From: Candidatus Limnocylindria bacterium
GTDB taxonomy: Bacteria > Chloroflexota > Limnocylindria > P2-11E
Direction: 5' to 3'
DNA: 60,911 nt
NCBI GenBank assembly: GCA_035708565.1
Contig: DASSSF010000097.1
Coordinates: forward strand, 1-60,911
Under the pieces are notes generated by a model that saw only the letters and a list, made by a program, of their open reading frames with translations, was not told where the DNA came from and searched no databases. This document shows, in pieces, positions 28,899 through 49,369 of this stretch. The first letter of the stretch is position 1. Every line of letters starts with the position of its first letter. Both the position numbers and the translations under genes were made by a program.

Positions 28899-29681
28899 TC
28901 AGGCTCCGTTCGCGAGCTTGATGTCGTTCTTCCCGCCGCGCTTGACGGCGAGGAGCATCGCGTCGGCCTTGTGGATGAGCTCGTCGATGTCGCGGCCGGA
29001 CTCCGGACACACCGCGACGCCGCACGACAGCGACACGCGGCTCCCGCGCGCGGCCGTCAGGACCTCGACGCTCCAGCGGATGCGCTGCGCGATGCGCCGC
29101 GCCTCGAGCCGGTCGCAGCGGTCGAGGAGGATGACGAACTCGTCGCCGCCGTACCGCGCGGCGAGATCGGCCGCGCGGAGGTTGGCCTTGATGGCGCTCG
29201 CGACCGCCTGAAGGACGCGGTCCCCCGCAGGGTGGCCCTTCGTGTCGTTCACGTCCTTGAAGCCGTCGAGGTCGAGCACCGCCACCGCGCAGCTTCCCTT
29301 GTGGTCGACGGTGCGCGCCGTGCGCTGAGCCGCCGCCGCGCGGAAGGACCGGAGGTTGAGCAGGCCCGTGAGCGTGTCCTGCTCGGCCTGCTTCTCGACC
29401 TTCTCCACGCCGTCACGGTCGGCGCCGTAGAGGAGCACGAAGCCCGCGCCGAGGAGCGCGCTCGTGGCGAGCTGCATGACGGACGCGAACTGCGCGTACT
29501 CGGCGGTCATGAGATCGAGGGACGCGTGCGCGAGCAGGGTGAGCGACGCCAGGCCGAAGAACAGCCACGAGCGGGCCGCGATCGGGCTCCGACGGACGCG
29601 CAGCGAGGAGAGCGTCAGCGCCACGATCGAGAACGCGACGGCGACGTTCGCCCAGTCGGCCGCGCGGGAGACGTCGGGCAC
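28899..29681 (-). CDS. membrane-anchored diguanylate cyclase (GGDEF domain)
   Basis: 3 N-terminal TM helices. I-site 'RAAD' and active site 'GGDEF' ('LRAADLAARYGGDEFVILL'). Last gene of the NITWE operon. Confidence 0.85.
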   Translation of the reverse strand: MPDVSRAADWANVAVAFSIVALTLSSLRVRRSPIAARSWLFFGLASLTLLAHASLDLMTAEYAQFASVMQLATSALLGAGFVLLYGADRDGVEKVEKQAEQDTLTGLLNLRSFRAAAAQRTARTVDHKGSCAVAVLDLDGFKDVNDTKGHPAGDRVLQAVASAIKANLRAADLAARYGGDEFVILLDRCDRLEARRIAQRIRWSVEVLTAARGSRVSLSCGVAVCPESGRDIDELIHKADAMLLAVKRGGKNDIKLANGA

Positions 29682-29684
29682 GGG

Positions 29685-30509
29685 CTAGGCGAGGCCGGGC
29701 TGAGGGACCATCCCGGGCGCGAGGTCCGGCGCGACGAGGCGGATCTCGCTGCGCCCCTGGCTCTTGATCTCGCGCAGCAGCACGTCCGCCCGCTGGATGA
29801 GGCCGTGGAGCTCACCGTCGCAGTCGGGGTACATCGCGACGCCCGCCGAGATGCCGAGCTGGCCCGCCGGGGAGACGATCTCCTGCACCGCGTACGCGAG
29901 CCGCTGCACGATGCGCTGCGCCTCGAAGCGGTCGCAGCGGTCGAGGAAGAGGATGAACTCGTCCTCGCCGTAGCGGGCCGCGATGTCGTACGAGCGGACG
30001 TTCGCGCGGACCGCCTGCGCGATCTCCTCGAGGGGGAGGCTCCGGGCGTCCCGCGGCGCGTCGAAGCGCGTCCAGGAGTCGACCGAGAGGACGACGACGG
30101 CGCAGCGCCACCCGTTCGCGCGCGCGGCGGCGAACTTCGGGACGCCCACGACCGCGAAGAGCGAGAGGTCGCTGAGCTGCGTGAGCGCGGCCGGAGCGGG
30201 CCGCGGTTCGGCATCGGGCGCGATCTCGACGATCCGCGTGCCGATGCGGGCGGAGAGCTCGTCGAGGTCGAGCCCGGGAAGCGGCTCGAGGTCCGGGAGC
30301 CGGCGGCGCGCGATGACGCCCATCGCGAGGACCCCGGCGCACGCCCCGAGCCCCGCCGCCCCGCTGTCCTCGGTGAAGACCGCCGAGTTGAACACCGTGA
30401 CCGCGAAGATGCCGACGAGGACCGCCTCGACGACGGTGAGCAGGACCGCGATCCGGCCGGAGGCTCGGCGCGGCGACGGATCGCCGCGCCGGCGCTCCGG
30501 CTTCCCCAT
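29685..30509 (-). CDS. membrane-anchored degenerate GGDEF-domain protein (GEDEF)
   Basis: ATG at 30509. 2-3 TM helices. 'VRSYDIAARYGEDEFILFL' keeps the RxxD I-site, but the second Gly of GGDEF is replaced by Glu. Confidence 0.75.
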   Translation of the reverse strand: MGKPERRRGDPSPRRASGRIAVLLTVVEAVLVGIFAVTVFNSAVFTEDSGAAGLGACAGVLAMGVIARRRLPDLEPLPGLDLDELSARIGTRIVEIAPDAEPRPAPAALTQLSDLSLFAVVGVPKFAAARANGWRCAVVVLSVDSWTRFDAPRDARSLPLEEIAQAVRANVRSYDIAARYGEDEFILFLDRCDRFEAQRIVQRLAYAVQEIVSPAGQLGISAGVAMYPDCDGELHGLIQRADVLLREIKSQGRSEIRLVAPDLAPGMVPQPGLA

Positions 30510-30535
30510 CCCAGAGGAAGATCGGATAGGGAGCT

Positions 30536-30694
30536 TCACTCTTCCCAGGTGATGTTGGTGGCGCTCTCGCCACCAGCGCCTTCGACGCACTCCCACGTGT
30601 CGCCGCACTCCGCGGCGGCGGGAGCGGCCGAGGCCGCGAGGAAGGCGACGGACAGGGCCGCGGCCGCGAGGATGCGAGCGATGCGCTTCGCCAT
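30536..30694 (-). CDS. small secreted peptide precursor ending in NITWEE (peptide B)
   Basis: 52 aa: MAKRIARILAAAALSVAFLAASAAPAAA|ECGDTWECVEGAGGESATNITWEE. The ATG is preceded by GGTGAGGGGA. Sec-type signal with an AxA site. The C-terminal motif matches the subtilase repeat. Confidence 0.6.
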   Translation of the reverse strand: MAKRIARILAAAALSVAFLAASAAPAAAECGDTWECVEGAGGESATNITWEE

Positions 30695-30705
30695 TCCCCT
30701 CACCC

Positions 30706-30900
30706 CTATTCCCACGTGATGTTCTGGAAGCAGATGTTGGTGCAGTTGGGCCTGCCGGTCTCGGTGACGCCGGTGTAGCCGCTCCAGGCGGACGACGGCA
30801 TGGCCGCCGTCCACCAGAGCGCGACCGACATGAAGATCGCGAGGACCATGCGGCGCGAAGGCCAGACGATGGGGAGGCTCCCCTCCATGTGCCTGCCCAT
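30706..30900 (-). CDS. small secreted or membrane-anchored peptide precursor ending in NITWE (peptide A)
   Basis: 64 aa from the ATG at 30900, which abuts the HD-GYP stop; alternative ATGs are at 30888 and 30849. Hydrophobic 'MVLAIFMSVALWWTAAMPSSA' is followed by 'WSGYTGVTETGRPNCTNICFQNITWE'. Confidence 0.5.
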   Translation of the reverse strand: MGRHMEGSLPIVWPSRRMVLAIFMSVALWWTAAMPSSAWSGYTGVTETGRPNCTNICFQNITWE

Positions 30901-32301
30901 CTAGTTCGCCTTCACCGCGGCCACGGCCTGCTCGAACACGTGCGCGTGCGCGCCGGCCGGCTGGCCCGCGAGAGCCTGCTTGCGGTGCTCGGTCACGATC
31001 GCGACGAACTTCTCCACCACCACCGGGTTGAGCTGCGTGCCGGCGACGGCGCGCATCTCGCGGATCGCGTGGTCGAAGGAGAGCGCGCGGCGGTACGGAC
31101 GCGTCGAGGTCATCGCCTCGAACGTGTCGGCCACCGCGATGATCTGCGCGGCCAGCGGGATCTCGTCGCCCTTGAGGCCGTTCGGGTATCCCGACCCGTC
31201 GTAGCGCTCGTGGTGCGCGAGGATGATCGGCCGGACCTTCTCGAGCGTCGGGACGTGGGCGAGGAGGTTGGCACCGATGACCGGGTGCATCTTCATCTCC
31301 GCCCACTCCTCATCCGTGAGGCGCTCGGGCTTGCGGAGGATCTGCTCCGGGATGCCGATCTTGCCGATGTCGTGGAACAGCGCGCCGAGCTGCACGGCCG
31401 CGACCTCGTCCTCCGAGAGGCCGAGCTCACGCGCGACGGTGACCGCGTGGAACATCGTCGCCGACGAGTGGCCGTGCGTGTAGCGGTCCTTCGCCTCGAG
31501 CGCGCCCAGGAGCGCGCCGATGACCGAGAGGTGCGACTGCTCGAGGCGGTCGTTCGTCAGCTGAAGCATGCGGTTCGCCTCGACGAGGTCGGCGTTGCGG
31601 AGCCGCACCTCGCTCGACTTCGCCATGTAGAGCTTGAACGAGTACCAGGCCACCGCGAGCGGCAGCATGAACGTGACCGTCCCGAAGACGTTGAGCGACT
31701 GGTACGCGAAGGCGAGCGCCGCGCCGTTCACGGCGGTGGCGAGGTAGTTGATCGTCATCCACGAGTAGTTCTCACGCCAGACCGACATGAAGCGGTTCTG
31801 CGTCGTGAGCGTGATGACGAAGGCGGTCATCGCGCTGTTGGCGAGGAAGTAGATCGAGGCCGAGAGCGCCACGGCGACGACCGACTGCGGGATGTCCGCC
31901 GGCGGCACCTGACCGCCGAAGAGGCGGTACGCGTGCGCCGCGAGGAAGGCCGAGATCGTGAGGTTCCCGACGTTGAAGACCATCTTCTTGAGGGGCTTCC
32001 GCGTCGGCGTGAAGCAGTTCACGAGGGCGGAGGTCAGGTTCACCCAGAGGGCGACCGCCGGCCCGTAGAGGACGTACGACGCGATCGTCGCAGCGAACGC
32101 GACCGAGATCGCGCTCGACTTGAAGAGGAACACCGGAAGCCGCTGGGCGATCGCGGCGATGCCCATCAGCACGACGAGCATCACCGGGTCGACCTGCGTC
32201 GGCAGCGCCGTCACGCTGTACCCGAGCGCTGCGGCGCCGAGGATCCCGACCGTCGCGATGTAGGGCGTCACGAGGGTCGTCTTGTCCACGTTCTTGAACA
32301 T
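30901..32301 (-). CDS. polytopic membrane HD-GYP domain protein (putative c-di-GMP phosphodiesterase/receptor)
   Basis: About 230-aa N-terminal domain with 6-7 TM helices. HD-GYP motifs 'HGHS', 'FHDIGK' and 'HHERYDGSGYP'. Starts 3 nt after the subtilase stop. Confidence 0.85.
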   Translation of the reverse strand: MFKNVDKTTLVTPYIATVGILGAAALGYSVTALPTQVDPVMLVVLMGIAAIAQRLPVFLFKSSAISVAFAATIASYVLYGPAVALWVNLTSALVNCFTPTRKPLKKMVFNVGNLTISAFLAAHAYRLFGGQVPPADIPQSVVAVALSASIYFLANSAMTAFVITLTTQNRFMSVWRENYSWMTINYLATAVNGAALAFAYQSLNVFGTVTFMLPLAVAWYSFKLYMAKSSEVRLRNADLVEANRMLQLTNDRLEQSHLSVIGALLGALEAKDRYTHGHSSATMFHAVTVARELGLSEDEVAAVQLGALFHDIGKIGIPEQILRKPERLTDEEWAEMKMHPVIGANLLAHVPTLEKVRPIILAHHERYDGSGYPNGLKGDEIPLAAQIIAVADTFEAMTSTRPYRRALSFDHAIREMRAVAGTQLNPVVVEKFVAIVTEHRKQALAGQPAGAHAHVFEQAVAAVKAN

Positions 32302-32304
32302 CTC

Positions 32305-34032
32305 TTAATCCACCATCCCGGCGAAGCCGCTGCCGGATCCTGATAGGGCGTCGAGGGACTGCTGCGCAGACGACTGCCAGGTGATGGTCTCCCACGTGAT
32401 CGTCTCCCACGTGATGTTCTCCCACGTGAAGTTCTCCCACGTGATGTTGTCCCAGGTGATGTTGTCCCAGGTGATGTTCTCCCAGGTGATGTTCCCCCAG
32501 GTGACGTTCCGCGAGTCGACGCCGCCGTTGTGGAAGAGGTCCCGCCACGGGATCGGCTGGCCCTGGACGAAGCGCCGCATGTCCTTGGCGAACGAGTCGG
32601 TGACGCGGCCCTCGCTGTACTCCTTGTCGGGGTCCACCGAGGCCACGGCCTTGAGCGCGTTCACGAGGCCAGCGCCCTTGTCCTGGGGCCCGCCGTACGC
32701 GATGGGCGTCGTGTTCTTCTTGAGACGGCTCTTGATCTGCCCGGGCGTGAGCGAGCTGTTGCGCTCGACCATGAGCGCGACGATCCCCGACACCACCGGG
32801 GCGGCCATCGACGTGCCCGAGAGGCGCATGTACTCGGCGACGAGCGCGCCCGGGGCCGTCACGAGACGGTCCGGGTACATGGTCGGGATGGTGCTGCCGG
32901 GCGCGAGCGCGCTGACCATCTTGCGGCCGGGCGCCACGAGGTCCGGCTTGTTGAGGCGGTCGTACTTCGTGCGGCCGCGCGAGGAGAAGGTGGCCATGAG
33001 GTCGTCGGCGAGCGTCGCGGTGCCGTTGTCGTCGATCGCGCCGACCGTGATGACGAACGGGTCCGCGCCCGGCGACGTCACCGTCTCGACCGTCGGGCCG
33101 CTGTTGCCGGCGGAGACGACGACCGCGATGCCGGCGAAGTTGAGGACCTGCGCGGCGGTCGCGAGCGGGTCCGTCTTGTACGAGCCCGACTGCGTCGCGC
33201 CGAACGACATGTTCGTGACCTTGATGTTGTAGGTGCTCCTGTTGGCGAGCACCCACTGCAGGCCGCGAAGGATGATGCCGGTGTTGGAGACGCCGTTCGC
33301 GTCGATGACGCGGACGTCGACGACGTTCGCGCAGGGCGCGGTGCCGGTGAAGGCGCCGCCCGACGCGGTGCCGTTGCCGGCGACGAGGCCGGCGACGTGC
33401 GTTCCGTGGCCGCCCGGGTCACCCGCCACGTTGACGGGCGTCGTGTTGGTCACCGAAGCGCTCGTGAAGTCCACGGCGGCGACGATCCGTCCAGCGAGGT
33501 CCGGGTGGGGGTAGACCCCGCTGTCGACGACCGCGACGCCGACGCCGCGCCCGCACGTCCCGTACTGCTGCCAGGCCTGCGGCGCGTTCGTGGCGAGGAT
33601 CCCGGGCGTCGCGGCCTTCGAGGCGTCGAGCGCCGGGTCCCAGGTCGCGCGGAACGTGACGTTCTTGAAGACGTAGTCGACGTCGTTGTCCGAAAGGAGC
33701 TCGAGAAGCTGGCGGCCGTTGATCGTGGCGACGCCGCCGCCGATGATCCCGAGGCCGTAGTGCGTCTTGCCGCCCCTCGACGTGATCGCCTTGCTGACCT
33801 TCTCGAGGCGATCGCCGCTCCTGCTCTTGCCCCTGGAATCGGCGGGCGTCCCGCGGACGATGACGTCGAACTCGCCGCGCGGGTCCGCGAGGACCTCCTG
33901 GAGGAGGACCGGATCGATCTTGGCCGCGTTGACCGAGCGGGCCTCGCTCGGCGCCGACTGCGTCGCGATCAGGATCGCGAGACAGAGAGCCGCGCCGAGC
34001 CATCGCTGGACCGCTCTCGCAGTGCCCGTCAT
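32305..34032 (-). CDS. secreted subtilisin-like serine protease (S8) with a C-terminal NITWE pentapeptide repeat tail
   Basis: ATG at 34032 preceded by GGGAGG. Signal peptide and an I9-like propeptide region. Catalytic 'VAVVDSGV' (Asp), 'HGTHVAG' (His), 'SAGNSG' (Asn) and 'SGTSMAAP' (Ser). The C-terminus carries nine 5-aa repeats. Confidence 0.9.
   Translation of the reverse strand: MTGTARAVQRWLGAALCLAILIATQSAPSEARSVNAAKIDPVLLQEVLADPRGEFDVIVRGTPADSRGKSRSGDRLEKVSKAITSRGGKTHYGLGIIGGGVATINGRQLLELLSDNDVDYVFKNVTFRATWDPALDASKAATPGILATNAPQAWQQYGTCGRGVGVAVVDSGVYPHPDLAGRIVAAVDFTSASVTNTTPVNVAGDPGGHGTHVAGLVAGNGTASGGAFTGTAPCANVVDVRVIDANGVSNTGIILRGLQWVLANRSTYNIKVTNMSFGATQSGSYKTDPLATAAQVLNFAGIAVVVSAGNSGPTVETVTSPGADPFVITVGAIDDNGTATLADDLMATFSSRGRTKYDRLNKPDLVAPGRKMVSALAPGSTIPTMYPDRLVTAPGALVAEYMRLSGTSMAAPVVSGIVALMVERNSSLTPGQIKSRLKKNTTPIAYGGPQDKGAGLVNALKAVASVDPDKEYSEGRVTDSFAKDMRRFVQGQPIPWRDLFHNGGVDSRNVTWGNITWENITWDNITWDNITWENFTWENITWETITWETITWQSSAQQSLDALSGSGSGFAGMVD
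32374..32508 (-). repeat. 9 x 15-bp in-frame tandem repeat encoding (N/T)(I/V/F)TW(E/D/G/Q)
   Basis: Minus-strand units: aacgtcacctggggg, aacatcacctgggag, aacatcacctgggac (x2), aacatcacgtgggag, aacttcacgtgggag, aacatcacgtgggag, acgatcacgtgggag, accatcacctggcag. Confidence 0.95.
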
Positions 34033-34103
34033 GTCGCCTCCCACCCGAGAACTTCGGTGACCTGGTCCGGCCCAGGACGAGAGGAACGATGTGAGAACCG
34101 GTC

Positions 34104-34194: not shown

Positions 34195-35745
34195 TTACGC
34201 CGGGGCGTTCGCTGTACGTACGTCGCGGAGCGCGAGGAAGAGCTCGCGGGTCGCCGGCTCAGGCTCCGTGTCGAGGTCGCGGCGGAGGCGCCGCTCGAGC
34301 GACTGGTAGTGGCGGATCGCGAGGTCCGTGGCGCCGGCTCGGTGGTAGGCCCGGAGCAGGAGCCGGTGGCCGCCCTCGTCGTAGGGGTCCTTCTCGAGGA
34401 TCCGGTGGCACAGATCGATCGTGGCCTGCGGCTCGCCGGTCTCGAGCTCGGCCCAGGCCAGCTCCCGGGCCACGGACAGGAAGGCCGCCTCCACCCGCTC
34501 CCGCAGCTCGTCGATCCACGCTCCCGTGAGGTCGGCGAGGAGGGTCCCCCGATGGAGGGAGACGGCCTCGCGGAGGAGCTGCAGGTGCGCCTTCGCGTCC
34601 CCCGCCGCCTTGGCCTCGCGCGCCCGCCGCGCGCCCTGCTCGAAGGCGTCGGTGTCGAGCGTCGAGCCTTTCGGAAGCTCGAGCGCGTACCCGGCCGGCA
34701 CTTTCGTGACCTTGACGTGGTCGCCGAGGCCCGCGGACGCGAGCTCCCTCCGGAGCGAGTGCAGCGTGAAGTGGAACTTGCTCACGGCCGCGGCCGGCTC
34801 CGAGTCCGGCCAGAGCGCGACCATCAGCTCGTCGCGCGGGACGGGCCTCCCCTCCGCGGTCGCGAGGATCGCGAGCATCTCCTTCGCCTTCGCGGTGCGC
34901 CAGACGTTCTGGCCGACGGTCGCGCCGTCATGGCGCATCGCGAACGGACCGAGGAGGAGGATCTCGAGCGGCGCCGGGCCGCGCGCCGGCGCCTCGTGCG
35001 CCGGCATCGCGCTGTTCGCGGTGAGCAGGCCGAGCGTGGACGAGAGCCGGAGCGACGGATCGACCGCCGCGCCCTGCTCGCGAAGCCACTCGAAGACGGC
35101 CGGCCGCGCGACGAGGAGGTCGCGGTAGCCCTCCTGCGCGAGCGTGCGGACGGCGTCCCGTAGCGCGGGCACCTCCTGCTCGGGCGTCGGGGAGAGCCGC
35201 GCCGCGAGGATCGTGGCCTTCGTGCGGGCGTAGCGGGCGCCCGCCGCTTCGGCCTCCCGCTCGGCGCCGCGGTACGCGACGTACGCGTCGTCGAGGCTCC
35301 CCTCGAGCTCGAGCACGGCTCCCCGCGCGAGGAGCAGGTAGGCGGTCGGGACGGCCGAGGCGTCCACGCGCGCCGCCACCTCGTCGGCGGAGCGGAGCGC
35401 TGCCCGGGCGCCGGGCAGGTCGCCGCGGCCCGCGCGGAGCTCGGCCGCGGCGCAGTGCAACCGGAAAAGGGTGCTCGGGTCGCGCGAGCCACGCTCGGCG
35501 TCGAGCGCGGCGCGGTACGCGTCCTCGGCCGCCTCCGCGTGCGCGGCGAGCGCGTTCACGACGACGACCGTGGAGAGCGAGGCGGCGCGCGCGATGCCGA
35601 ACGACTCCGTGCGCTCGACTCTCGGCGTGAGGTCGACGCCCGCGACCGCTTCCGGCGACAGCCTGCGGAGCCACTGGCGGGCGCGCTCACGGAGGTCCGC
35701 GAGACCCGCGGACCGGCTCGAACGATCGTCGGGAGACGAGCTCAC
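34195..35745 (-). CDS. SARP-type regulator: N-terminal helical-repeat (TPR-like) region plus C-terminal winged-helix and BTAD domains
   Basis: GTG at 35745 is preceded by GAGAGGAAGG. 'LEILLLGPFAMRHDG...PVPRDELMVALWPD...' is an OmpR-type wHTH. 'TDAFEQ...LLREAVSLHRGTLLADL...LLLRAYHRAGATDLAIRHYQSLERRLRRDLDTEP' is a BTAD domain. The upstream 62 aa of the ORF overlap the preceding gene and are rejected. Confidence 0.8.
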   Translation of the reverse strand: MSSSPDDRSSRSAGLADLRERARQWLRRLSPEAVAGVDLTPRVERTESFGIARAASLSTVVVVNALAAHAEAAEDAYRAALDAERGSRDPSTLFRLHCAAAELRAGRGDLPGARAALRSADEVAARVDASAVPTAYLLLARGAVLELEGSLDDAYVAYRGAEREAEAAGARYARTKATILAARLSPTPEQEVPALRDAVRTLAQEGYRDLLVARPAVFEWLREQGAAVDPSLRLSSTLGLLTANSAMPAHEAPARGPAPLEILLLGPFAMRHDGATVGQNVWRTAKAKEMLAILATAEGRPVPRDELMVALWPDSEPAAAVSKFHFTLHSLRRELASAGLGDHVKVTKVPAGYALELPKGSTLDTDAFEQGARRAREAKAAGDAKAHLQLLREAVSLHRGTLLADLTGAWIDELRERVEAAFLSVARELAWAELETGEPQATIDLCHRILEKDPYDEGGHRLLLRAYHRAGATDLAIRHYQSLERRLRRDLDTEPEPATRELFLALRDVRTANAPA

Positions 35746-35818
35746 GTTGTCGGGCCTTCCTCTCTGTGCGGAAGGTGAGGCTAACCCAGGCTGAACGGGC
35801 GCGGTCGTGTCGGAACGG

Positions 35819-37579
35819 TCACCAGTTGGCCGTGAACCCCGCCACGCGTGGCGGGAGCGCGGCGCCGGGCGGGCGGATGACGTAGACGGTGCCGAAGGAT
35901 CCCTGGAGCCAGGCCCGCTCGAACGCCGCACGGGGATAGACGCGCCTGACGGCGGCGTTCGACAGCGCGGCCGGGTCGTGCGAGATCACGTCCCCGCTCT
36001 CGGTGAACCCGCTGATCACGAGCAGGTGGCCCTCTGTCCCGAGGCCGAACAGGAAGCCCGGCAGCGCGCCCGGAGCGAAGGACACCGACGCCACGAGCGG
36101 GATGCCCGCGACGACGAACGCCTCCGCCTCGGCGAGCGAGCGCAGCCGGGTCACGGAGCCACGCGCCCCATAGCGCGCCGCGTACGCGGTGTTGAACGCC
36201 CAGTTCCCCGTTCCGCGGTAGCGGTGGTCGTAGGTGTATCGCGCGGCGTGGTCGACCTGCGGATCCGCGTACGGGATCCCGGCGAGCTCCGACGCCGAGG
36301 GCCCGAGGCCGTGGAACGCGAGCACCATCGCGGTCGACGTCGGGCTGCACCATGCCTCACCACCGCCGTCGTACTCCGGGTACTCGCCGGCGTGGATCTC
36401 CTGCGAGAACGGCGGCACCGCGAGCTCGCTGCCGCGACCGGATCCGGGTGCGCTCGGGATGCGCGGGGCGTACTCGCGGGTGTCCGCGACGACCGCGCCG
36501 AGCGCCGTCACACGCGGCGTCGCGGCGTAGCCGTCGGTCCGGTACAGCGTCGCGCGGAGACGGTACGAGCGGTAGCGCTCGGCGCCGGCGACGAACGTGT
36601 CCACGCTCACGCTCCCGCCGTCGTCGCGCTGGCCGGCGACCGACGTCCGCGAGATGTCCGCGTCGCCCGAGGCCCACACGCCCATCACGTACCAGCGCGT
36701 GCTCCGGATCCCGTCCGGAGAGGCCTGCATCGCGACCTCGATCCACGTGCCGGGCGGCGTGTCCGCCTCCCACGACGCGATGAGCTCGCTCCAGCCGAAC
36801 GGCGTCTCCTGCCACGCGGACGTCCACGAGCCGGCGCGGTACGCGCGCGTGCCGCGCCCGAACGCGTCGGTGAAGGTTCCGCTCTGCGTCGGCGACGCGA
36901 GCTCGACCGCCGCGGCGGCGAAGCGCGTCCCGTCGTGCGTGCCTGCCGCGAGGTCGGCCTGCGCGTAGCCGATCGCCGGCGAGCCGCCCGACGGCGGCAC
37001 GCTGCCGTCGGCGCGCAGCACGGTGACGTACCAGAACACGCCGAAGTCCTCGAGCCACGCCGCGGCCTCGATGAGCGGACGGATCGCGAGGCGGTACGTG
37101 CCCGGGACGAGCGGGGCCTGAACGGTGAACCGGAACCACGCGACCTGGCCCGGACCGACATACGGCACGGGCTGGACGGCGACGCGGTCGTAGCGCGGCC
37201 AGCCCGTCGCGGGCGAGCCGCGCGTGCCGTCCCCGCCGAGGACGCTCGCGCGGTCCTGTCCGGGCTCCGGCGTCCACGTGCCGAGGTAGGCGACCTCCCC
37301 CATCCTGCCCGCGACCCAGCCGAGCGAGCCCGAGTTGTAGAAGGCGACGGTCGCCGTCGAGCGCTCGCCCGCGCAGAGCGACGGGTAGCCGCTCTGGCCG
37401 TACCAGTGCGCGTGGAACCCGGCGATGCCCGACGGCACGTCGGCCGGCGGCGGGATCCCCGGTCCGACGCTCGACACGCACGACGACCCGCTCGCCTTCG
37501 CGGGCGGGACCGCGGCCGTCGCCGGGACCGGCGCCGCGGGCGCGAGCGCGACGACGACCGCGAGCGCGATGCGGATCAC
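35819..37579 (-). CDS. secreted protein: Ig-like N-terminal module plus C-terminal C39-like (YvpB-type) cysteine peptidase domain
   Basis: Signal peptide. 'GGGEAWCSPTSTAMVLAFHG' is the Cys motif and 'EGHLLVISGFTESGDVISHDP' the His motif of the Peptidase_C39-like family. The N-terminal ~190 aa are paralogous to the protein at 39104-40405. Confidence 0.75.
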   Translation of the reverse strand: MIRIALAVVVALAPAAPVPATAAVPPAKASGSSCVSSVGPGIPPPADVPSGIAGFHAHWYGQSGYPSLCAGERSTATVAFYNSGSLGWVAGRMGEVAYLGTWTPEPGQDRASVLGGDGTRGSPATGWPRYDRVAVQPVPYVGPGQVAWFRFTVQAPLVPGTYRLAIRPLIEAAAWLEDFGVFWYVTVLRADGSVPPSGGSPAIGYAQADLAAGTHDGTRFAAAAVELASPTQSGTFTDAFGRGTRAYRAGSWTSAWQETPFGWSELIASWEADTPPGTWIEVAMQASPDGIRSTRWYVMGVWASGDADISRTSVAGQRDDGGSVSVDTFVAGAERYRSYRLRATLYRTDGYAATPRVTALGAVVADTREYAPRIPSAPGSGRGSELAVPPFSQEIHAGEYPEYDGGGEAWCSPTSTAMVLAFHGLGPSASELAGIPYADPQVDHAARYTYDHRYRGTGNWAFNTAYAARYGARGSVTRLRSLAEAEAFVVAGIPLVASVSFAPGALPGFLFGLGTEGHLLVISGFTESGDVISHDPAALSNAAVRRVYPRAAFERAWLQGSFGTVYVIRPPGAALPPRVAGFTANW

Positions 37580-44887: not shown

Positions 44888-46697
44888 CATCGGATCGGTG
44901 ACCACGACCGTCGAGGCGCCGACCCGCAACCGCCACGTCGCCGCCTGGGTCGACGAGATGGCGCGGCTATGCCAGCCCGACCGCGTGTACTGGTGCGACG
45001 GCTCCGAAGCGGAGCGCGACCGCCTGACGAAGGAGGCGGTCGACGCCGGGATCCTGATCCCGCTCGACCCGAAGAAGCGCCCCAACTCGTACTACTCGCG
45101 CTCGAACCCGAACGACGTCGCGCGCACCGAGGAGCTCACGTTCGTCTGCACGCCGACGCGCGAGGAGGCGGGGCCGACGAACAACTGGATGGAGCCCGGC
45201 GAGATGCGCCGCAAGCTCGAGGGCATCTACCGCGGCTCGATGAAGGGGCGGACGATGTACGTCGTCCCCTACGTCATGGGCCCCGAGGGATCGCCGTTCG
45301 CGAAGATCGGCATCGAGCTCACGGACTCCGTCTACGTCGCGCTCAACATCCGGATCATGGCGCGGATGGGGAACGTCGCGCTCGACCTGCTCGGCGCGTC
45401 GAACGACTTCAACCGCGGGCTGCACTCGGTCGCGGACTGCGACCCGTCGCGCCGCTACATCACGCACTTCCCGCAGGACAACGCGATCTGGTCCGTCGGC
45501 TCGGGCTACGGCGGGAACGCGCTCCTCAACAAGAAGTGCCTCGCGCTCCGGATCTCGAGCTACCTCGCGCGCCAGGAGGGCTGGCTCGCGGAGCACATGC
45601 TCCTGCTCGAGGCGGAGAGCCCGACGGGCGAGGTCCGCTACGTCGCCGCCGGTTTCCCGAGCGCCTGCGGCAAGACGAACCTCGCGATGCTCGTCCCGCC
45701 GAGGATCTTCGGCGACTGGAAGGTGCGCACGCTCGGCGACGACATCGTGTGGCTGCGCATCGGCGAGGACGGACGCCTCTACGCGCTCAACCCCGAGGCG
45801 GGATTCTTCGGCGTCGCGCCCGGCACGAGCATGCACACGAACCCGAACGCGATGCGGATGCTCTCGCACGACGCGATCTTCACCAACGTCGCGCTCACGA
45901 AGGACGGCGACGTGTGGTGGGAGGGAATGGACGGCCCGGCGCCGGAGGGGACGCTCGACTGGCGCGGCCGGCCGTGGACGCCGTCCGCGGGCGAGCCCGC
46001 GGCGCACCCCAACAGCCGCTTCACCGTCGCGCTCGAGAACAACCCGGCGCTCTCGCCGCGCGCGCACGATCCGCGGGGCGTGCCGGTGTCCGCGCTCATC
46101 TTCGGGGGCCGCCGCTCGACGACGGTCCCGCTCGTGCTCGAGTCCTTCAACTGGACGCACGGCGTGTACCTCGCCGGCACGATGGGCTCCGAGACGACCG
46201 CGGCGAAGACGGGCGCGGTGGGCGTCCTCCGCCGCGATCCGATGGCGAACATCCCGTTCGTCGGCTACGACATGGGCACGTACCTCGAGCACTGGCTCGA
46301 GATGGGCGCGCGGATCCCGCACCCGCCGCGGCTCTTCCTCGTGAACTGGTTCCGCAAGGACGCGCGCGGGAAGTTCCTCTGGCCGGGCTTCGGCGAGAAC
46401 ATGCGCGCCATCAAGTGGATCCTCGACCGCTGCGACGGACGCGCGGGCGCGCGCGAGACGCCGGTCGGGTGGACGCCGCGGCCCGAGGACCTCGAGCTGC
46501 GCGAGCTGGGCGCGCCGCGCGAGGCGGTGGAGGCGAGCCTCGCGGTGGATCCGGGCGAGTGGCTCGCGGAGCTCGTGCTCCAGGGCCAGTGGCTCGACCA
46601 CCTCGGGCCGACCGTGCCGCGGGCCCTCCGCCTCCAGCACGAGCTCCTGCTCGGCGCGACCGAGCGCGCGGCCGAGCAGCGCGAGGCGCGCTCCTAG
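44880..46697 (+). CDS. pckG: phosphoenolpyruvate carboxykinase (GTP)
   Basis: Full-length GTP-PEPCK pattern, including 'FPSACGKTNLAML' and 'YFGVAPGTS...NP'. The start is the TTG at 44880 or the GTG at 44898. Confidence 0.9.
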   Translation: MASIGSVTTTVEAPTRNRHVAAWVDEMARLCQPDRVYWCDGSEAERDRLTKEAVDAGILIPLDPKKRPNSYYSRSNPNDVARTEELTFVCTPTREEAGPTNNWMEPGEMRRKLEGIYRGSMKGRTMYVVPYVMGPEGSPFAKIGIELTDSVYVALNIRIMARMGNVALDLLGASNDFNRGLHSVADCDPSRRYITHFPQDNAIWSVGSGYGGNALLNKKCLALRISSYLARQEGWLAEHMLLLEAESPTGEVRYVAAGFPSACGKTNLAMLVPPRIFGDWKVRTLGDDIVWLRIGEDGRLYALNPEAGFFGVAPGTSMHTNPNAMRMLSHDAIFTNVALTKDGDVWWEGMDGPAPEGTLDWRGRPWTPSAGEPAAHPNSRFTVALENNPALSPRAHDPRGVPVSALIFGGRRSTTVPLVLESFNWTHGVYLAGTMGSETTAAKTGAVGVLRRDPMANIPFVGYDMGTYLEHWLEMGARIPHPPRLFLVNWFRKDARGKFLWPGFGENMRAIKWILDRCDGRAGARETPVGWTPRPEDLELRELGAPREAVEASLAVDPGEWLAELVLQGQWLDHLGPTVPRALRLQHELLLGATERAAEQREARS

Positions 46698-49369
46698 CGG
46701 GCGTCCTCCAGGGCGTAGGCGACCGCGGCCTCGGTCCCGAGCGCGCGCCCCTCGTCGTACGCGGCGCGGTGCGCGGCGATCTCCGCGTCGCCCGGGTAGC
46801 GCAGCTCGGCGACGCGCTGCGTCCGCACGTAGTCGAGCGCGCCCTCCACGAGCCCCGTCCCCGACCGCTCGCGCAGCGCGTCCGCCGCCCCCGCGAGCCG
46901 AGTGGCGCGCGCGACGTCGCCGTCGAGCATCGCGAGGAGCGCGAAGTCCGTGAGGACGAGCGTGATCGCGGAAACGTCGGCGGCCGCGTGGAAGAGCCGG
47001 AGCGACTCGGCGAAGCCGTCGCGCGCCGCGCGGGGGTCGCCGCGGAAGAGGTCCGTGAGCCCGCGCATGTGGAGCGACCACCCGAGCGCGAAGGGGTCGC
47101 CGAGGCGCCGGTTGAGCGCGACCGCCTCCCGCGCGTTCTCGCCGGCGGCGTCCACCTCCTCGCGTGAGTCCGGCGCGAGGTTCACGAGCCCGAAGAGCAC
47201 GTTCGCGATCCCCCGCTCGTCGCCGAGCCGCCGGTAGATCCCGAGCGCCTCCGTGAGCGCGGCGCGGCCCGTGTCGAGGCGCCGCTGCTCCGCCTGCGGC
47301 AGGAGGTAGGCGAACGAGAGGTTGTAGAGCGCGTTCGCCGTCTCGCGCTCGTCGCCGCGCCCGCGCCAGTGCTCGAGGGTCGCCGCGTACCAGCGCTCAG
47401 CCGCCTCGAGATCGCCCTGCCAGTACGCGATGCCGCCCGCCGCCTCGATCGCTTTCGCGCGGAGGTCGGCGTCGATGCCGCCTATCGCGGCCAGGACGCG
47501 GTCGGAGAGGAGGCGCCCCTCCTGAAGGTGCCCGCGCATCTGCCAGAAGCGCCACGCCGCGCGCAGCAGGCGCGCGGCGGCCGTGGGGTCGTTCGCGACG
47601 GACCACTCGACGGCGGCGCGGAGGTTCGCGGCGTCGCGCTCGATCCGGTCGAGCACCGTCTTCTGCTCGGGCCCGAAGATCCGGGGCCCGACCGCCTCGA
47701 GGATCGCGACGCAGCGCTCGGCATGGCGCCGGCGCACGTCGCGCGCGTCCGGCTCCTCTTCGAGGCGCTCGAGCGCGTACTCGCGGATGGTGACGAGCAT
47801 GCGGACGCGCGGGACCCCGCCGACCTCGCGCTGCCGCACGAGGCTGTGGTCGACGAGCGCCATCAGCACGTCGAGCGCGTCGGCGCCGAGCCCGGGCCCG
47901 CACACGGCCTCCACGTCCTCGACGTCCGCGCCGTCGACGAACACCGCGAGCCGCGCGAAGAGCGTGCGCGCGGGCGGATCGAGGAGGTCGTACGACCAGG
48001 CGATCGCGCCGCGGAGCGTGCGTTGCCGGTCGGGGAGGTCGCGCGATCCCGCGGAGAGGAGGTCGAGCGCGTGGCCGAGCCGCTGCGCGATCGCCTCGGG
48101 CGTCAGGAGCTTCACGCGCGCCGCCGCGAGCTCGATCGCGAGCGGCAGGCCGTCGACGCGGCGCACGACCTCGGCGATGGCCGCGGCGTTGTGGGCGGTC
48201 ACCTCGAAGTCCGGGCGGGTCGCGCGCGCCCGCTCGACGAAGAGCCGCGCGGCCTCCGACTGCGTGAGCGCCTCGACGCCGTAGGAGGGCTCGGGCAGCG
48301 AGAGCGGCGGCACCGGGAACTCGCTCTCGCCGTAGATGCGGAGCGGCGCGCGGCTCGACACGATCGCGCGGACGCTCGGCGCGGCCTTGAGGATCTCCGC
48401 GACCACCGGCGCCGCCGGGAGCAGCTGCTCGAAGTTGTCGATCACGAGGAGCGCGGAGCGGGCGCGGAGGTGCTCGGCGACGCGCTGCGCGACGGGCACG
48501 CTGCCCAGATCCTGGAGGCCGAGCGACGTGGCGATCGTCGGCACCACGAGCGCGGGGTCGGAGAGCGGCCCGAGCGGGACCCAGTAGACCCCGTCCGGGA
48601 ACCGCTCGAGGAGCTCGCTCGCGATCTCGATCGAGAGGCGCGTCTTGCCCGTGCCCCCGGGGCCGGTGAGCGTGAGGAGCCGCGTGCCGTCCGAGAGGAG
48701 GCGTACGCCCTCGGCCTTCTCGCGCTCGCGGCCGATGAACGTCGTGAGCTGCTCAGGGAGGTTGTTGGCGGTGCGGTCGAGGGTGCGGAGCGGCGGGAAG
48801 TGGGCGGGAAGGCCGTCGACGACGAGCTGATAGAGGCGCTCCGGCTCGGCGAAGTCCTTGAGGCGGTGCGTGCCGAGGTCCTTGAGCGAGACGCCCTCCG
48901 GCAGAGCGTCCTCCACCAGGGAGCGCGTCGACGCGGAGACGACGGCCTGCCCGCCGTGCGCCGCCGCGGCGATCCGCGCCGCGCGGTGGACGTCGATGCC
49001 GACGTAGTCCGCGCCCGCCTCCGCCGCCGCGGGCCGCCCCTCGCCCGTGTGCAGGCCCATGCGGACGCGCACGTTCGCCCCGTGCGGGAAGGCGGTCGAC
49101 GCGAGCGCGCGCTGCACGCCGGCGACCGCGGCGACCGCCGCCTGCGCCGAGGAGAAGACGACGAAGAACGAGTCGCCCTCCACGCGCACCTCGCGGCCGC
49201 CCGAGCCCTCGCGGAGGGCGCCGCGCATCAGCCGGCCATGCTCGACCAGGACCTCGTCGTACGCGTCGGTGCCGAGCGATCGGAGCAGCTCGGTCGATCC
49301 CTCGATGTCGGTGAACAGGAACGTCACCGTGCCGGTCGGCAGCGTCGCGCCCATCCTCAGACGTGGCAT
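46694..49369 (-). CDS. class III adenylate/guanylate cyclase fused to a STAND-type ATPase and TPR repeats
   Basis: 'VTFLFTDIEGST...EGDSFFVVF...VRMGLHTG' is the cyclase domain and 'LTGPGGTGKTRL' the P-loop. The C-terminal ~350 aa are TPR-like. Confidence 0.85.
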   Translation of the reverse strand: MPRLRMGATLPTGTVTFLFTDIEGSTELLRSLGTDAYDEVLVEHGRLMRGALREGSGGREVRVEGDSFFVVFSSAQAAVAAVAGVQRALASTAFPHGANVRVRMGLHTGEGRPAAAEAGADYVGIDVHRAARIAAAAHGGQAVVSASTRSLVEDALPEGVSLKDLGTHRLKDFAEPERLYQLVVDGLPAHFPPLRTLDRTANNLPEQLTTFIGREREKAEGVRLLSDGTRLLTLTGPGGTGKTRLSIEIASELLERFPDGVYWVPLGPLSDPALVVPTIATSLGLQDLGSVPVAQRVAEHLRARSALLVIDNFEQLLPAAPVVAEILKAAPSVRAIVSSRAPLRIYGESEFPVPPLSLPEPSYGVEALTQSEAARLFVERARATRPDFEVTAHNAAAIAEVVRRVDGLPLAIELAAARVKLLTPEAIAQRLGHALDLLSAGSRDLPDRQRTLRGAIAWSYDLLDPPARTLFARLAVFVDGADVEDVEAVCGPGLGADALDVLMALVDHSLVRQREVGGVPRVRMLVTIREYALERLEEEPDARDVRRRHAERCVAILEAVGPRIFGPEQKTVLDRIERDAANLRAAVEWSVANDPTAAARLLRAAWRFWQMRGHLQEGRLLSDRVLAAIGGIDADLRAKAIEAAGGIAYWQGDLEAAERWYAATLEHWRGRGDERETANALYNLSFAYLLPQAEQRRLDTGRAALTEALGIYRRLGDERGIANVLFGLVNLAPDSREEVDAAGENAREAVALNRRLGDPFALGWSLHMRGLTDLFRGDPRAARDGFAESLRLFHAAADVSAITLVLTDFALLAMLDGDVARATRLAGAADALRERSGTGLVEGALDYVRTQRVAELRYPGDAEIAAHRAAYDEGRALGTEAAVAYALEDAR

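Follow-up and report, generated by a model that had tools for sequence, protein, structure and literature searches.

The systems closest to the one described here are found in the Bacillota, where the propeptides of the RRNPPA family (e.g., Rap-Phr, PlcR-PapR, and NprR-NprX) are 50–120 aa long, are exported by Sec, and are processed by signal peptidase and then by extracellular proteases (PMC11343458). For CSF, the proteases named are subtilisin, Epr, and Vpr (PMC11343458). The active peptide comprises 5–10 aa, usually at the extreme C-terminus, some propeptides are tandem or pseudo-repeated, and the gene adjoins that of the receptor (PMC11343458). The ComX precursors (53–58 aa) carry a modified Trp third or fourth from the C-terminus, ComX(RO-E-2) ending in ..KGIFWEQ, and are sensed by the membrane kinase ComP (PMC5331326). 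Among the membrane-embedded input domains of c-di-GMP enzymes, the MASE9 family (bioRxiv 10.1101/2021.11.05.467447) has no known ligand and is thought to bind one within the membrane.

The locus that we compare with these systems lies in a 60,911-nt stretch of Candidatus Limnocylindria DNA, referred to here as the window. It includes two small genes, for which an earlier, sequence-only reading had proposed tandem ORFs at 30536–30900; both were recovered exactly, on the minus strand. They are pepA (30706–30900; 64 aa, MGRHMEGSLPIVWPSRRMVLAIFMSVALWWTAAMPSSAWSGYTGVTETGRPNCTNICFQNITWE) and pepB (30536–30694; 52 aa, MAKRIARILAAAALSVAFLAASAAPAAAECGDTWECVEGAGGESATNITWEE), each predicted to encode a small secreted-protein precursor. 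As that reading had it, the ATG of pepA directly abuts the stop codon of the HD-GYP gene (..AACTAG followed by ATGGGC), and a strong ribosome binding site, GGGGTGAGGGGA, precedes pepB. The predicted signal peptide of pepA extends to about SSA/W, leaving a mature part of about 26 aa with CTNIC and an NITWE end (codons 30709–30723), and that of pepB (MAKRIARILAAAALSVAFLAASAAPAAA) leaves about 24 aa with an internal DTWE and a terminal NITWEE (codons 30539–30556), so that N-I-T-W-E is the C-terminal sequence common to both. Signal peptides were recognized by heuristics, that is, a K/R n-region, a hydrophobic h-region of at least 11 residues, and an AxA-like site (AAA/E in pepB, SSA/W in pepA).

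Both are real genes encoding small proteins with signal-peptide-like N-termini: GC3 is 0.97 for pepA and 0.88 for pepB, like that of the neighboring genes, and both were called in an independent assembly (pepA in L141, pepB as P0121). Syntenic small-ORF homologues in relatives, a point on which the sequence-only reading had turned, were found for pepA (L001, L002, and L028–L030, ending in CTEGCLQSITWE) but not for pepB, for which the homologue search returned pepB alone and nothing alignable. What pepB shares with the family is architecture only, namely the signal peptide, the internal DTWE, and the terminal NITWE(E), a two-motif layout that resembles the peptides of fam1, L086, and L079. Scans of the peptides and of the protease tail described below against Pfam and NCBIfam, at E-values up to 10, gave only noise, neither database having a model for them.

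Like the Phr propeptides, pepA and pepB are small precursors (64 and 52 aa) with Sec-type signal peptides by our heuristic. The larger set of peptides ending in a Trp-Glu motif, to which they belong, likewise combines a conserved extreme C-terminus with a variable pro-region, and additional internal copies of the unit occur in 74 of 164 such peptides, comparable with the tandemly duplicated Phr propeptides. The differences lie in the neighborhood. There is no adjoining cytoplasmic receptor of the TPR type (Rap, NprR, PlcR, PrgX, or AimR), the neighbors being an S8 protease, a MASE9-HD-GYP protein, GGDEF proteins, and a BTAD regulator, and no genes for Opp, the importer through which RRNPPA pheromones re-enter the cell, lie within about 15 kb of the cassette. 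Here the partner is a polytopic MASE9 c-di-GMP enzyme, the operon includes an S8 protease with 3–17 copies of the motif, and the host is a member of the Chloroflexota.

That protease, encoded two genes upstream of the peptides, is a predicted secreted S8 subtilase of 579 aa (32305–34044, minus strand). It has a signal peptide at its N-terminus, retains the D/H/S triad, and carries a repeat tail. It matches Peptidase_S8 (PF00082) with 167.7 bits, and the VDSG, HGTH, and GTSMA motifs, as well as D170, H209–H212, and S408, are invariant among 61 homologues. Scores for the mycosin and PatA/PatG subfamilies fall below their cut-offs. The closest solved structure is 3afg, for the catalytic domain only; homology of the tail to the C-terminal domain of 3afg was considered and rejected, as the phmmer match spans the tail without identities. 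An AF2 model built on the 61-sequence alignment was poor (mean pLDDT 58.7, with residues 534–575 below 50).

The C-terminal tail (32374–32508, minus strand) consists of nine tandem pentapeptide units of the form x[IVF]TW[EDQ], which read NVTWG NITWE NITWD NITWD NITWE NFTWE NITWE TITWE TITWQ. In the DNA, these units form a coding minisatellite with a 15-nt period (8.9 copies with 90% match by TRF). The tails of relatives have 3–17 units, and in most of them the motif is internal, while the L014/L138 protease ends exactly in it. Each unit is preceded by E, D, or Q rather than by a hydrophobic residue. The sequence-only reading missed that the NITWE of the peptide ends is the repeat unit of this co-transcribed subtilase.

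One might be tempted to compare the tail with the pentapeptide-repeat (Rfr-fold) proteins, with which it shares a strict five-residue period and hydrophobic residues at fixed positions. The consensus differs, however (x[IV]TW[ED] versus A(D/N)LXX), the AF2 model is of low confidence and shows no beta-helix, and the tail did not match the Pfam Pentapeptide models even at E=10. Tandem units in a secreted precursor that are released by an S8-family protease are a feature of the Kex2-processed multi-copy precursors, i.e., yeast alpha-factor and the fungal repeat peptides. Those systems are eukaryotic, have dibasic spacers, and carry the repeats in a dedicated precursor, not in the protease. We could find no described precedent in the literature for a protease with tandem copies of the motif that ends neighboring small proteins.

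Between the protease gene and pepA lies the gene for a predicted membrane c-di-GMP phosphodiesterase (30901–32301, minus strand; 466 aa), which has the HDIGK and HHERYDGSGYP motifs. Its HD_5 domain (135.3 bits) is C-terminal to a polytopic MASE9 domain encoded at roughly 31612–32301 (minus strand; PF20972, 41.5 bits against a cut-off of 24.3). The outward-facing loops of MASE9 are predicted to be very short, in agreement with the description of the family (bioRxiv 10.1101/2021.11.05.467447).

Downstream, a membrane GGDEF-domain protein with a degenerate GEDEF (29685–30509, minus strand) starts 26 nt past the pepB stop, and the last gene of the operon encodes a predicted membrane diguanylate cyclase with a canonical RYGGDEF (28899–29681, minus strand; GGDEF, 136.2 bits). 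Both are accessory, and the GEDEF protein is an output that the family does not conserve; only 4 of 39 loci have a GGDEF gene in the 1.5 kb downstream. Also accessory is a BTAD/SARP-type regulator (34195–35931, minus strand), located 5′ of the S8 gene and composed of a wHTH and a BTAD domain (97.3 bits) with an N-terminal extension of about 330 aa; it precedes the S8 gene in 7 of 19 loci. Farther upstream is a predicted secreted Peptidase_C39_2 protein without an ABC transporter fusion (35819–37579), which tblastn recovered in L001 and L002 only, among the first 27 loci. A scan for promoters and terminators yielded nothing informative within the operon.

The motif is highly restricted in its distribution. 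Across all six frames of the 61-kb window, N[IVF]TW is confined to the S8 tail and the ends of the two peptides. Of 820 stop-to-stop segments, just 2 terminate in [IVLFM][TS]W[EDQ], compared with none in shuffled windows. The same cassette was found at about 130 related Chloroflexota/Limnocylindria loci, and it is conserved in soil Chloroflexota. At 80 metagenome loci, motif-ending segments numbered 64 of 2650 on the operon strand and 0 of 3225 on the other. Candidates that we discarded include L027, a chance two-unit match in an unrelated alphaproteobacterial protein, and three matches of the exhaustive search (P0299, P0306, and P0260) that look unrelated or artefactual. In the databases, the peptides form 343 clusters, all labeled 'hypothetical', with 68 representatives at 50% identity.

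A repeat-tailed S8 gene lies immediately 5′ of the MASE9 gene at 66 of 73 loci. At 46 of 76, the MASE9 gene is followed by one or two small ORFs that have a signal peptide and terminate exactly in x[IV][TS]WE, the first starting −3 to +31 nt and the second about +130 to +230 nt from the MASE9 gene stop. A signal-peptide-like N-terminus was recognized by the heuristic in 68 of 71 motif-ending ORFs. The relatives support the proposal that the small ORFs are partners of the membrane HD-GYP gene, rather than chance ORFs; of their placement between HD-GYP and GGDEF genes, the HD-GYP side is conserved and the GGDEF side is not. Since the S8 gene is upstream at 66 of 73 loci and MASE9-GGDEF replaces MASE9-HD-GYP in L008, L015, and L017, the conserved partner is the MASE9 sensor domain and not the output domain. 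About 35–40% of loci have the S8 tail and the MASE9 gene without a small peptide gene, so the peptides are dispensable for the core module.

The acidic, Trp-containing C-termini that the sequence-only reading had singled out are conserved across the family. In all 70 peptide termini, W is followed by E, with T or S before the W in 69, and after the terminal E there is at most one more residue (E, Q, or D). Counted from the C-terminus, the Trp is second in 50 of 68 peptides and third in 18. Other features named in that reading are present in the window (C-x5-C in pepB, C-x3-C in pepA, the NCT and NIT sequons of pepA, and a Gly-Gly 10 residues from the pepB end) but do not define the family: conservation of the Cys pair is limited to the pepA subfamily and some of the MFRS-type peptides, relatives do not keep the Gly-Gly, and the sequon Asn is mostly G in them. 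At this position, the 70 peptides have G 59, S 5, N 3, D 2, and T 1 times, and the S8 tail units have G 161, N 138, S 91, T 34, A 32, and D 10 times; this variability argues against a requirement for glycosylation. Like the Cys pairs, the Gly-Gly, and the N-x-T sequons, the adjacency of GGDEF genes is lineage-specific.

The peptide genes are under purifying selection, with dN/dS values of 0.41 in one of the large subfamilies (n=23) and 0.36 in the other (n=20), and the bodies of the peptides are divergent. Peptide ends co-vary with the units of their cognate tails at all three variable positions; the score was reached by 0 of 10,000 shuffles, which ignore phylogeny. Tails that adjoin D-type peptides are composed of 75% D-units, compared with 0% in the other classes. 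One should keep in mind that gene conversion between the tail and peptide genes could also be a source of this co-variation. Like the co-variation itself, the architecture of the cassette, its linkage in an operon, and the placement of the motif exactly at the C-terminus are observations. On the MASE9 side, we saw no association of outer-loop residues with the motif class that could be separated from phylogeny. A Lys in GGKTPP occurs in many D-type loci, yet L127, L130, and L132 lack it, the G-type L037 has it, and shared ancestry confounds the pattern.

The description of these ORFs as candidate secreted signal or precursor peptides remains the best one, firm as to the genes and their conserved architecture, with the signaling role still that of a candidate. 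The reading that we prefer, at a probability of roughly 0.45, is that pepA and pepB are Phr/ComX-like, Sec-exported pro-peptides whose W-E terminus, once freed or exposed by the subtilase, is read by the MASE9 domain of the HD-GYP phosphodiesterase. What we infer here is that the peptides are exported, that the S8 protease cleaves them, which species is active, and that MASE9 serves as receptor. The functional part of both small proteins would be the extreme C-terminus, x-[IV]-[TS]-W-E (here NITWE), a unit that recurs nine times in the presumably disordered tail of the subtilase. After removal of the signal peptide, the subtilase would cut the pro-peptides, and probably its own tail as well, so that short peptides with the W-E unit would be liberated or exposed. 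Being amphipathic, these Trp peptides may be sensed at the membrane by the polytopic MASE9 domain, changing the turnover of c-di-GMP, and the two downstream membrane GGDEF proteins would add outputs in this genome. The cassette thus read probably feeds a peptide signal into c-di-GMP control.

The residue before the terminal pentapeptide is L, V, F, or I in 77% of the peptides, in line with the P1 preference of subtilases. The tail units, however, are preceded by E, D, or Q, so one cleavage specificity cannot yield the same pentapeptide from tails and peptides, unless the cut is made after W. We also count against the pheromone reading the short MASE9 loops, the lack of a tie between loop residues and motif class that is separable from phylogeny, the lack of an alignable homologue of pepB, and the loci without peptides.

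The preferred reading can be pushed further, to a version that we regard as doubtful. Here, the subtilase tail would be a poly-pheromone borne on the protease, its 3–17 self-cut units joining the pro-peptide ends as a diffusible W-E pentapeptide autoinducer that MASE9 reads directly, leading to c-di-GMP hydrolysis. If true, this would provide the first MASE9 ligand, the first peptide quorum sensing in Chloroflexota, and a direct pathway from peptide to c-di-GMP. It would also represent a new way of encoding a signal, in which a coding minisatellite forms part of the gene for the very enzyme that processes its product and the pherotypes (N-, G-, D-, and S-type) co-evolve.

Coupling of a membrane c-di-GMP protein to an extracytoplasmic protease encoded alongside is familiar from LapD-LapG of Pseudomonas. 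LapG is a cysteine protease (C93), the receptor LapD has degenerate GGDEF-EAL domains and a periplasmic domain of some size, and signaling runs inside-out. A functionally similar arrangement based on tethering and competition is the rival that survives best, although we think it unlikely: the W-E units would form a multivalent docking motif that keeps the subtilase at the cell surface, bound either to the MASE9 protein or to some component of the envelope. The small proteins (1–4 copies) would displace it from this dock by competition or be recruited there as well, and the protease, as opposed to a diffusible peptide, would be the effector controlled by, or reporting to, c-di-GMP signaling. 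This would suit the tail being the universal element (66 of 73 loci, as against about 60% with peptides), its 3–17 tandem copies, which suggest avidity binding, its low AF2 confidence, which is expected of an array of short linear motifs, and the protease of L014/L138 that itself terminates in the motif. The co-variation of tails and peptides is also what a shared binding site would give. Left unexplained is why the motif sits at the extreme C-terminus in 70 of 70 peptides when it is internal in most tails; moreover, MASE9 exposes only very short loops, and no class-specific change was seen in them. The likeness to LapD-LapG is functional only, since the latter has neither Trp pentapeptide repeats nor small motif-ended peptides, the protease here belongs to S8, and the sole match to the NCBIfam LapD model, a GGDEF gene, scores 49 bits against a cut-off of 1020.

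Regulation of the protease itself, which we consider distinctly unlikely, would make the tail a cis-acting pseudo-substrate or autoinhibitor and the small proteins dedicated substrates or product-like inhibitors, with T-W-E-COOH in S3–S1; MASE9 would then sense something else, and the operon link would be regulatory only. Subtilase propeptides are known to act as inhibitors whose C-terminus occupies the active-site cleft, the enzyme here retains its catalytic triad, and the subtilase tail and the peptides share one recognition unit and co-vary. Such a scheme, however, gives no role to the near-obligate MASE9 partner, which is kept when the output domain changes, and one would not expect inhibitors to be multi-copy peptides or to have an architecture like that of signal precursors. 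The quality of the AF2 model is too low for the tail to be placed in the cleft.

A variant closer to ComX, in which the conserved Trp is modified (e.g., prenylated) and the lipidated C-terminal peptide enters the membrane to be sensed by MASE9, appears improbable. Both systems have a short precursor with an invariant Trp near the C-terminus, and the ends are similar (GIFWEQ in ComX RO-E-2, G[IV]TWE(E/Q/D) here, with the Trp second or third from the end); both also have a polytopic membrane sensor, ComX being sensed outside the cell, and binding within the membrane, as thought for MASE9, would suit a lipidated ligand. Yet ComX has no Sec signal peptide, whereas one is predicted here, and it requires ComQ; its sensor is a histidine kinase rather than MASE9, and there is no repeat-tailed protease. 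No ComQ-like prenyltransferase or other modifying enzyme, and no radical-SAM, Opp, or ABC-exporter gene, was found in about 15 kb around the cassette in the window or in the related loci examined.

It is very improbable that the small proteins are bacteriocins or RiPPs, disulfide-bridged or with a double-glycine leader, that are matured by the neighboring proteases. Each window peptide does have a Cys pair, pepB has its Gly-Gly, and a Peptidase_C39_2 protein is encoded upstream, but neither the Cys pairs nor the Gly-Gly are family-conserved, the leaders are of the Sec type, and the C39_2 protein is secreted, lacks the ABC fusion, and is confined to L001 and L002 of the first 27 loci. Exporter, immunity, and modification genes are absent from the surveyed neighborhoods, and no ABC exporter is linked within about 15 kb. 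A genome of 73% GC yields many spurious ORFs, such as one of 582 aa on the plus strand of the window (28971–30719), but the comparative data refute the idea that pepA and pepB are chance ORFs: 64 segments of the operon strand end in the motif versus 0 of the other, dN/dS is below 0.45, GC3 is 0.88–0.97, and the genes were called independently.

Our literature searches on the motif, MASE9, Limnocylindria and c-di-GMP, and peptide-sensing HD-GYP proteins returned no prior description. MASE-type domains are among the commonest inputs of c-di-GMP enzymes, and the conserved genetic link to a defined pentapeptide, which can be synthesized, makes the question of the MASE9 ligand directly testable. 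If the preferred reading is true, linear-peptide signaling, so far a speciality of the Bacillota, would be extended to the abundant, uncultured soil Chloroflexota (Limnocylindria) and tied directly to c-di-GMP.

For those annotating such genomes, hundreds of genes for proteins of 47–80 aa that are now 'hypothetical' or misnamed could be annotated by a simple rule: a signal peptide and a terminal x[IV][TS]WE, encoded next to a gene for an S8 protease with the repeat tail and a MASE9 gene.

The interval 30536-30900, put forward in the sequence-only reading as two tandem small ORFs, is the exact span of two adjacent minus-strand ORFs: pepA (30706-30900; 64 aa), whose ATG comes directly after the TAG stop codon of the HD-GYP gene upstream, and pepB (30536-30694; 52 aa), which lies 11 nt after pepA and is preceded by the purine-rich GGGGTGAGGGGA. 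Both are real, with a GC3 (0.97 and 0.88, respectively) similar to that of the flanking genes and with gene calls in an independent public assembly (L141). Every sequence detail reported for them was correct, and both N-termini are signal-peptide-like on heuristic judgement (basic N-terminus, hydrophobic stretch, and AxA-like site).

The operon, entirely on the minus strand, runs from a BTAD regulator (34195-35931) through an S8 subtilase (32305-34044) and a MASE9-HD-GYP c-di-GMP phosphodiesterase (30901-32301) to pepA and pepB, followed by two membrane GGDEF proteins, the first (29685-30509) with a degenerate GEDEF in place of GGDEF, which may be catalytically inactive, and the last (28899-29681) with the canonical motif. 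On the plus strand, a 582-aa ORF (28971-30719) that runs antisense to the two GGDEF genes and the two peptide genes is an artefact of high GC content and could be mistaken for a gene by automated callers.

The central link, missed in the sequence-only reading, is that the peptide termini match the units of the protease tail. The subtilase carries nine tandem pentapeptides (32374-32508, minus strand), in order NVTWG NITWE NITWD NITWD NITWE NFTWE NITWE TITWE TITWQ, encoded by a 15-nt minisatellite (8.9 copies, 90% match by TRF), while pepA ends in ..FQNITWE and pepB in ..ATNITWEE. With the 61-kb window read in all six frames, N[IVF]TW is confined to this tail and the two peptide ends, and of 820 stop-to-stop segments just 2 terminate in [IVLFM][TS]W[EDQ] (none in shuffled sequence).

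Neither the peptides nor the tail matched any Pfam or NCBIfam model, even at E=10, and the tail was rejected as a pentapeptide-repeat beta-helix given zero Pentapeptide model matches. A known C-terminal domain was also rejected; the match to 3afg seems to extend over the tail but without identities. The AF2 model of the subtilase (61-sequence alignment) was poor overall (mean pLDDT 58.7), with residues 534-575 below 50.

We gathered about 130 related loci using an S8 protein-guided search, a DNA pattern for the tandem repeat, and two MASE9-domain alignment scans. Almost all come from Chloroflexota/Candidatus Limnocylindria MAGs and soil metagenomes; the few with other phylum labels (contigs behind L001, L119, L125, L126, and peptide entry P0126, binned as Gaiellaceae, Dormiibacterota, Bathyarchaeia, Eisenbacteria, and Vicinamibacterales) are probably mis-binned Chloroflexota DNA. 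The core is a repeat-tailed S8 gene (3-17 units) directly upstream of a MASE9-domain gene, found in 66 of the 73 loci with enough upstream sequence. MASE9 is usually fused to HD-GYP, but to GGDEF in L008 (second module), L015, and L017; therefore, what is conserved in the partner is its sensor domain rather than its enzyme domain. The BTAD regulator (7/19 loci) and downstream GGDEF (4/39) are accessory, and the GGDEF neighbourhood invoked in the sequence-only reading is not a defining feature.

Where 250 nt or more of sequence follow the MASE9 gene, 46 of 76 loci have one or two motif-ended ORFs, the first starting -3 to +31 nt from the MASE9 stop and the second at about +130 to +230 nt. Several loci that seem to lack such ORFs carry variant ends (..GTTWE in L057, ..DIGWE in L087) or a second S8-MASE9 module there. 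In such tandem loci (L013, L024, L043, L058, L072, L099, also L061, L097, and L102), a second repeat-tailed S8 gene (and a second MASE9 gene) comes right after the first MASE9-HD-GYP gene, and the peptide pair lies about 3.2 kb downstream, beyond the second module.

The probability of chance ORFs is negligible: in 80 metagenome loci, 64 motif-ended segments lie on the operon strand versus 0 of 3225 on the opposite strand, and dN/dS is 0.41 for subfamily fam1 (n=23) and 0.36 for fam2 (n=20), but 0.72 for the small pepA set (n=5). A signal peptide is recognisable in 68 of 71 motif-ended ORFs, and the subfamilies share nothing except this and the terminus. They comprise fam1 (..AFAKDxxxGRETAWTD..GVTWE(E/Q), often with an internal GVTWE), fam2 (..ALAATPLG..REFFHGRGITWE), the pepA type (..CTEGCLQSITWE), the MFR[ST] type (..[DG]ITWE), and multi-copy forms (e.g., L077, TGVTWESAGITWESAGITWESAGVTWE). 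All 70 termini carry W followed directly by E; the residue before W is T/S in 69 of them, the one before that is I/V in 69, and no more than one further residue (E, Q, or D) comes after the E. No alignable homologue of pepB was found in our homologue search; its internal DTWE and terminal NITWEE fit the two-motif pattern.

A profile search of 5.8 billion proteins returned 343 clusters, all of 56-82 aa, none with a Pfam domain and all named 'hypothetical' save one mis-annotation (P0156, a 65-aa fam1 peptide that one source calls 'ABC-type nitrate/sulfonate/bicarbonate transport system substrate-binding protein'). When 1.84 billion representatives were searched exhaustively, 68 clusters were obtained at E <= 0.001, and sampled members of these large-database searches have the family architecture. 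In fam1, the largest subfamily (e.g., L084 1916-2116, P0126), the predicted mature N-terminus bears a second conserved motif, KDxxxGRETAWTD, containing a Trp flanked by Thr and an acidic residue.

At each of the three variable positions, peptide termini are closer to their own locus's tail units than to tail units from elsewhere, and 0 of 10000 shuffles reached the observed score in a test that ignores phylogeny. Tails next to D-type peptides (DITWE) have 75% D-units (0% in other classes), [IV]SWE peptides go with S-rich tails (L114, L134), the DIGWE end of L087 is paired with DIAWE units, and the window combines N-type peptides with an N-type tail. Gene conversion is an alternative cause of this co-variation.

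The peptides are small Sec-type precursors with a variable pro-region; a short invariant motif, in some cases repeated internally, sits at the very C-terminus, and their genes adjoin those for a sensor and an extracytoplasmic S8 protease. Together, these four features characterise the precursors of linear peptide pheromones. RRNPPA propeptides are likewise Sec-exported and matured by extracellular proteases; their pheromone lies at the C-terminal end and is in some cases present as tandem copies (PMC11343458); for CSF, a reference cited there names subtilisin, Epr, and Vpr. In ComX, similarly, the C-terminal peptide contains Trp (..GIFWEQ in strain RO-E-2) and is detected by a polytopic membrane sensor (PMC5331326). 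From this architecture and these parallels, we tentatively propose (probability roughly 0.45) that pepA and pepB are exported as pro-peptides, that the subtilase would free or expose their W-E terminus and probably cut its own tail likewise, and that the MASE9 domain would sense the product, modulating c-di-GMP hydrolysis. Of 164 peptides, 77% have L/V/F/I before the terminal pentapeptide, which would be suitable at the P1 position of a subtilase and fits such release; MASE9, which has no known ligand and has been proposed to bind one within the membrane (bioRxiv 10.1101/2021.11.05.467447), fits peptide sensing.

Against this proposal, about 35-40% of loci lack peptide genes, and the residues of the MASE9 loops do not follow motif class beyond what phylogeny accounts for. 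Furthermore, the pentapeptide is preceded by E/D in tails versus L/V/F in peptides, so a single cleavage specificity cannot give the identical pentapeptide from both, unless the cut falls after W. A LapD/LapG-like tether or competition between tail and peptides is unlikely, and peptides serving as pseudo-substrates or inhibitors of the protease quite unlikely; a ComX-like modified Trp, for all the resemblance of the termini, is very unlikely. A bacteriocin or RiPP is highly improbable: the Cys pairs and Gly-Gly, listed in the sequence-only reading, are confined to particular lineages, the leaders are of the Sec and not the double-glycine type, and genes for an ABC exporter, a prenyltransferase, a radical-SAM enzyme, or an Opp system are absent both within ~15 kb and from the other loci that were examined. 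A glycosylation signal was rejected, as the Asn of the N-x-T sequons is usually Gly in relatives. The general idea of secreted signal or precursor peptides holds, though several arguments first given for it rest on features without conservation.

The components are already known, and the peptide architecture matches that of C-terminal peptide pheromone precursors. The searched literature did not mention the repeat, link MASE9 to peptides or proteases, or report signalling by c-di-GMP or peptides in Limnocylindria. Three elements are undescribed: a MASE9 domain fused to a c-di-GMP enzyme as candidate receptor, tandem copies of the motif borne by the protease, and the phylum.

Several minor observations concern the tail and the neighbourhood. 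Most S8 proteins have ~15-25 residues after the repeats (32305-32373, minus strand, in the window, and matching ends in L001-L026), closing in a conserved [W/F/G]-x-x-[V/L]-[D/E]-COOH (GMVD, GLVD, WDPVD, WELVD, WAKLD), and the last unit is often ..TWQ, not ..TWE. In L014 (3038-4877, minus) and L138 (2741-4579, plus), the S8 protein ends in 17 perfect NVTWD units with nothing beyond, so the protease itself terminates in the motif, like the small peptides. An Anaerolineae MAG locus (L008, 262-2089, plus), where no small peptide gene was found, has seven NLAWD units (Ala for Thr), then two NLTWD, and a longer MASE9 partner (704 aa). The peptide gene of MFR[ST]-type and related loci is followed, with overlap at its stop, by a gene for a membrane histidine kinase (HATPase_c; L131 6509-7663, L117 6316-7668, L019 6082-7266), in the position of the window's two GGDEF genes. 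Just upstream of the BTAD regulator lies a 586-aa secreted protein with a Peptidase_C39_2 domain (35819-37579, minus); it is conserved in L001 and L002 (64-71% identity), the only ones of the first 27 loci in which tblastn detected it. Finally, an 891-aa protein (46694-49369, minus) has a STAND-like architecture, in which an adenylate/guanylate cyclase domain is joined to NB-ARC/AAA and TPR regions.
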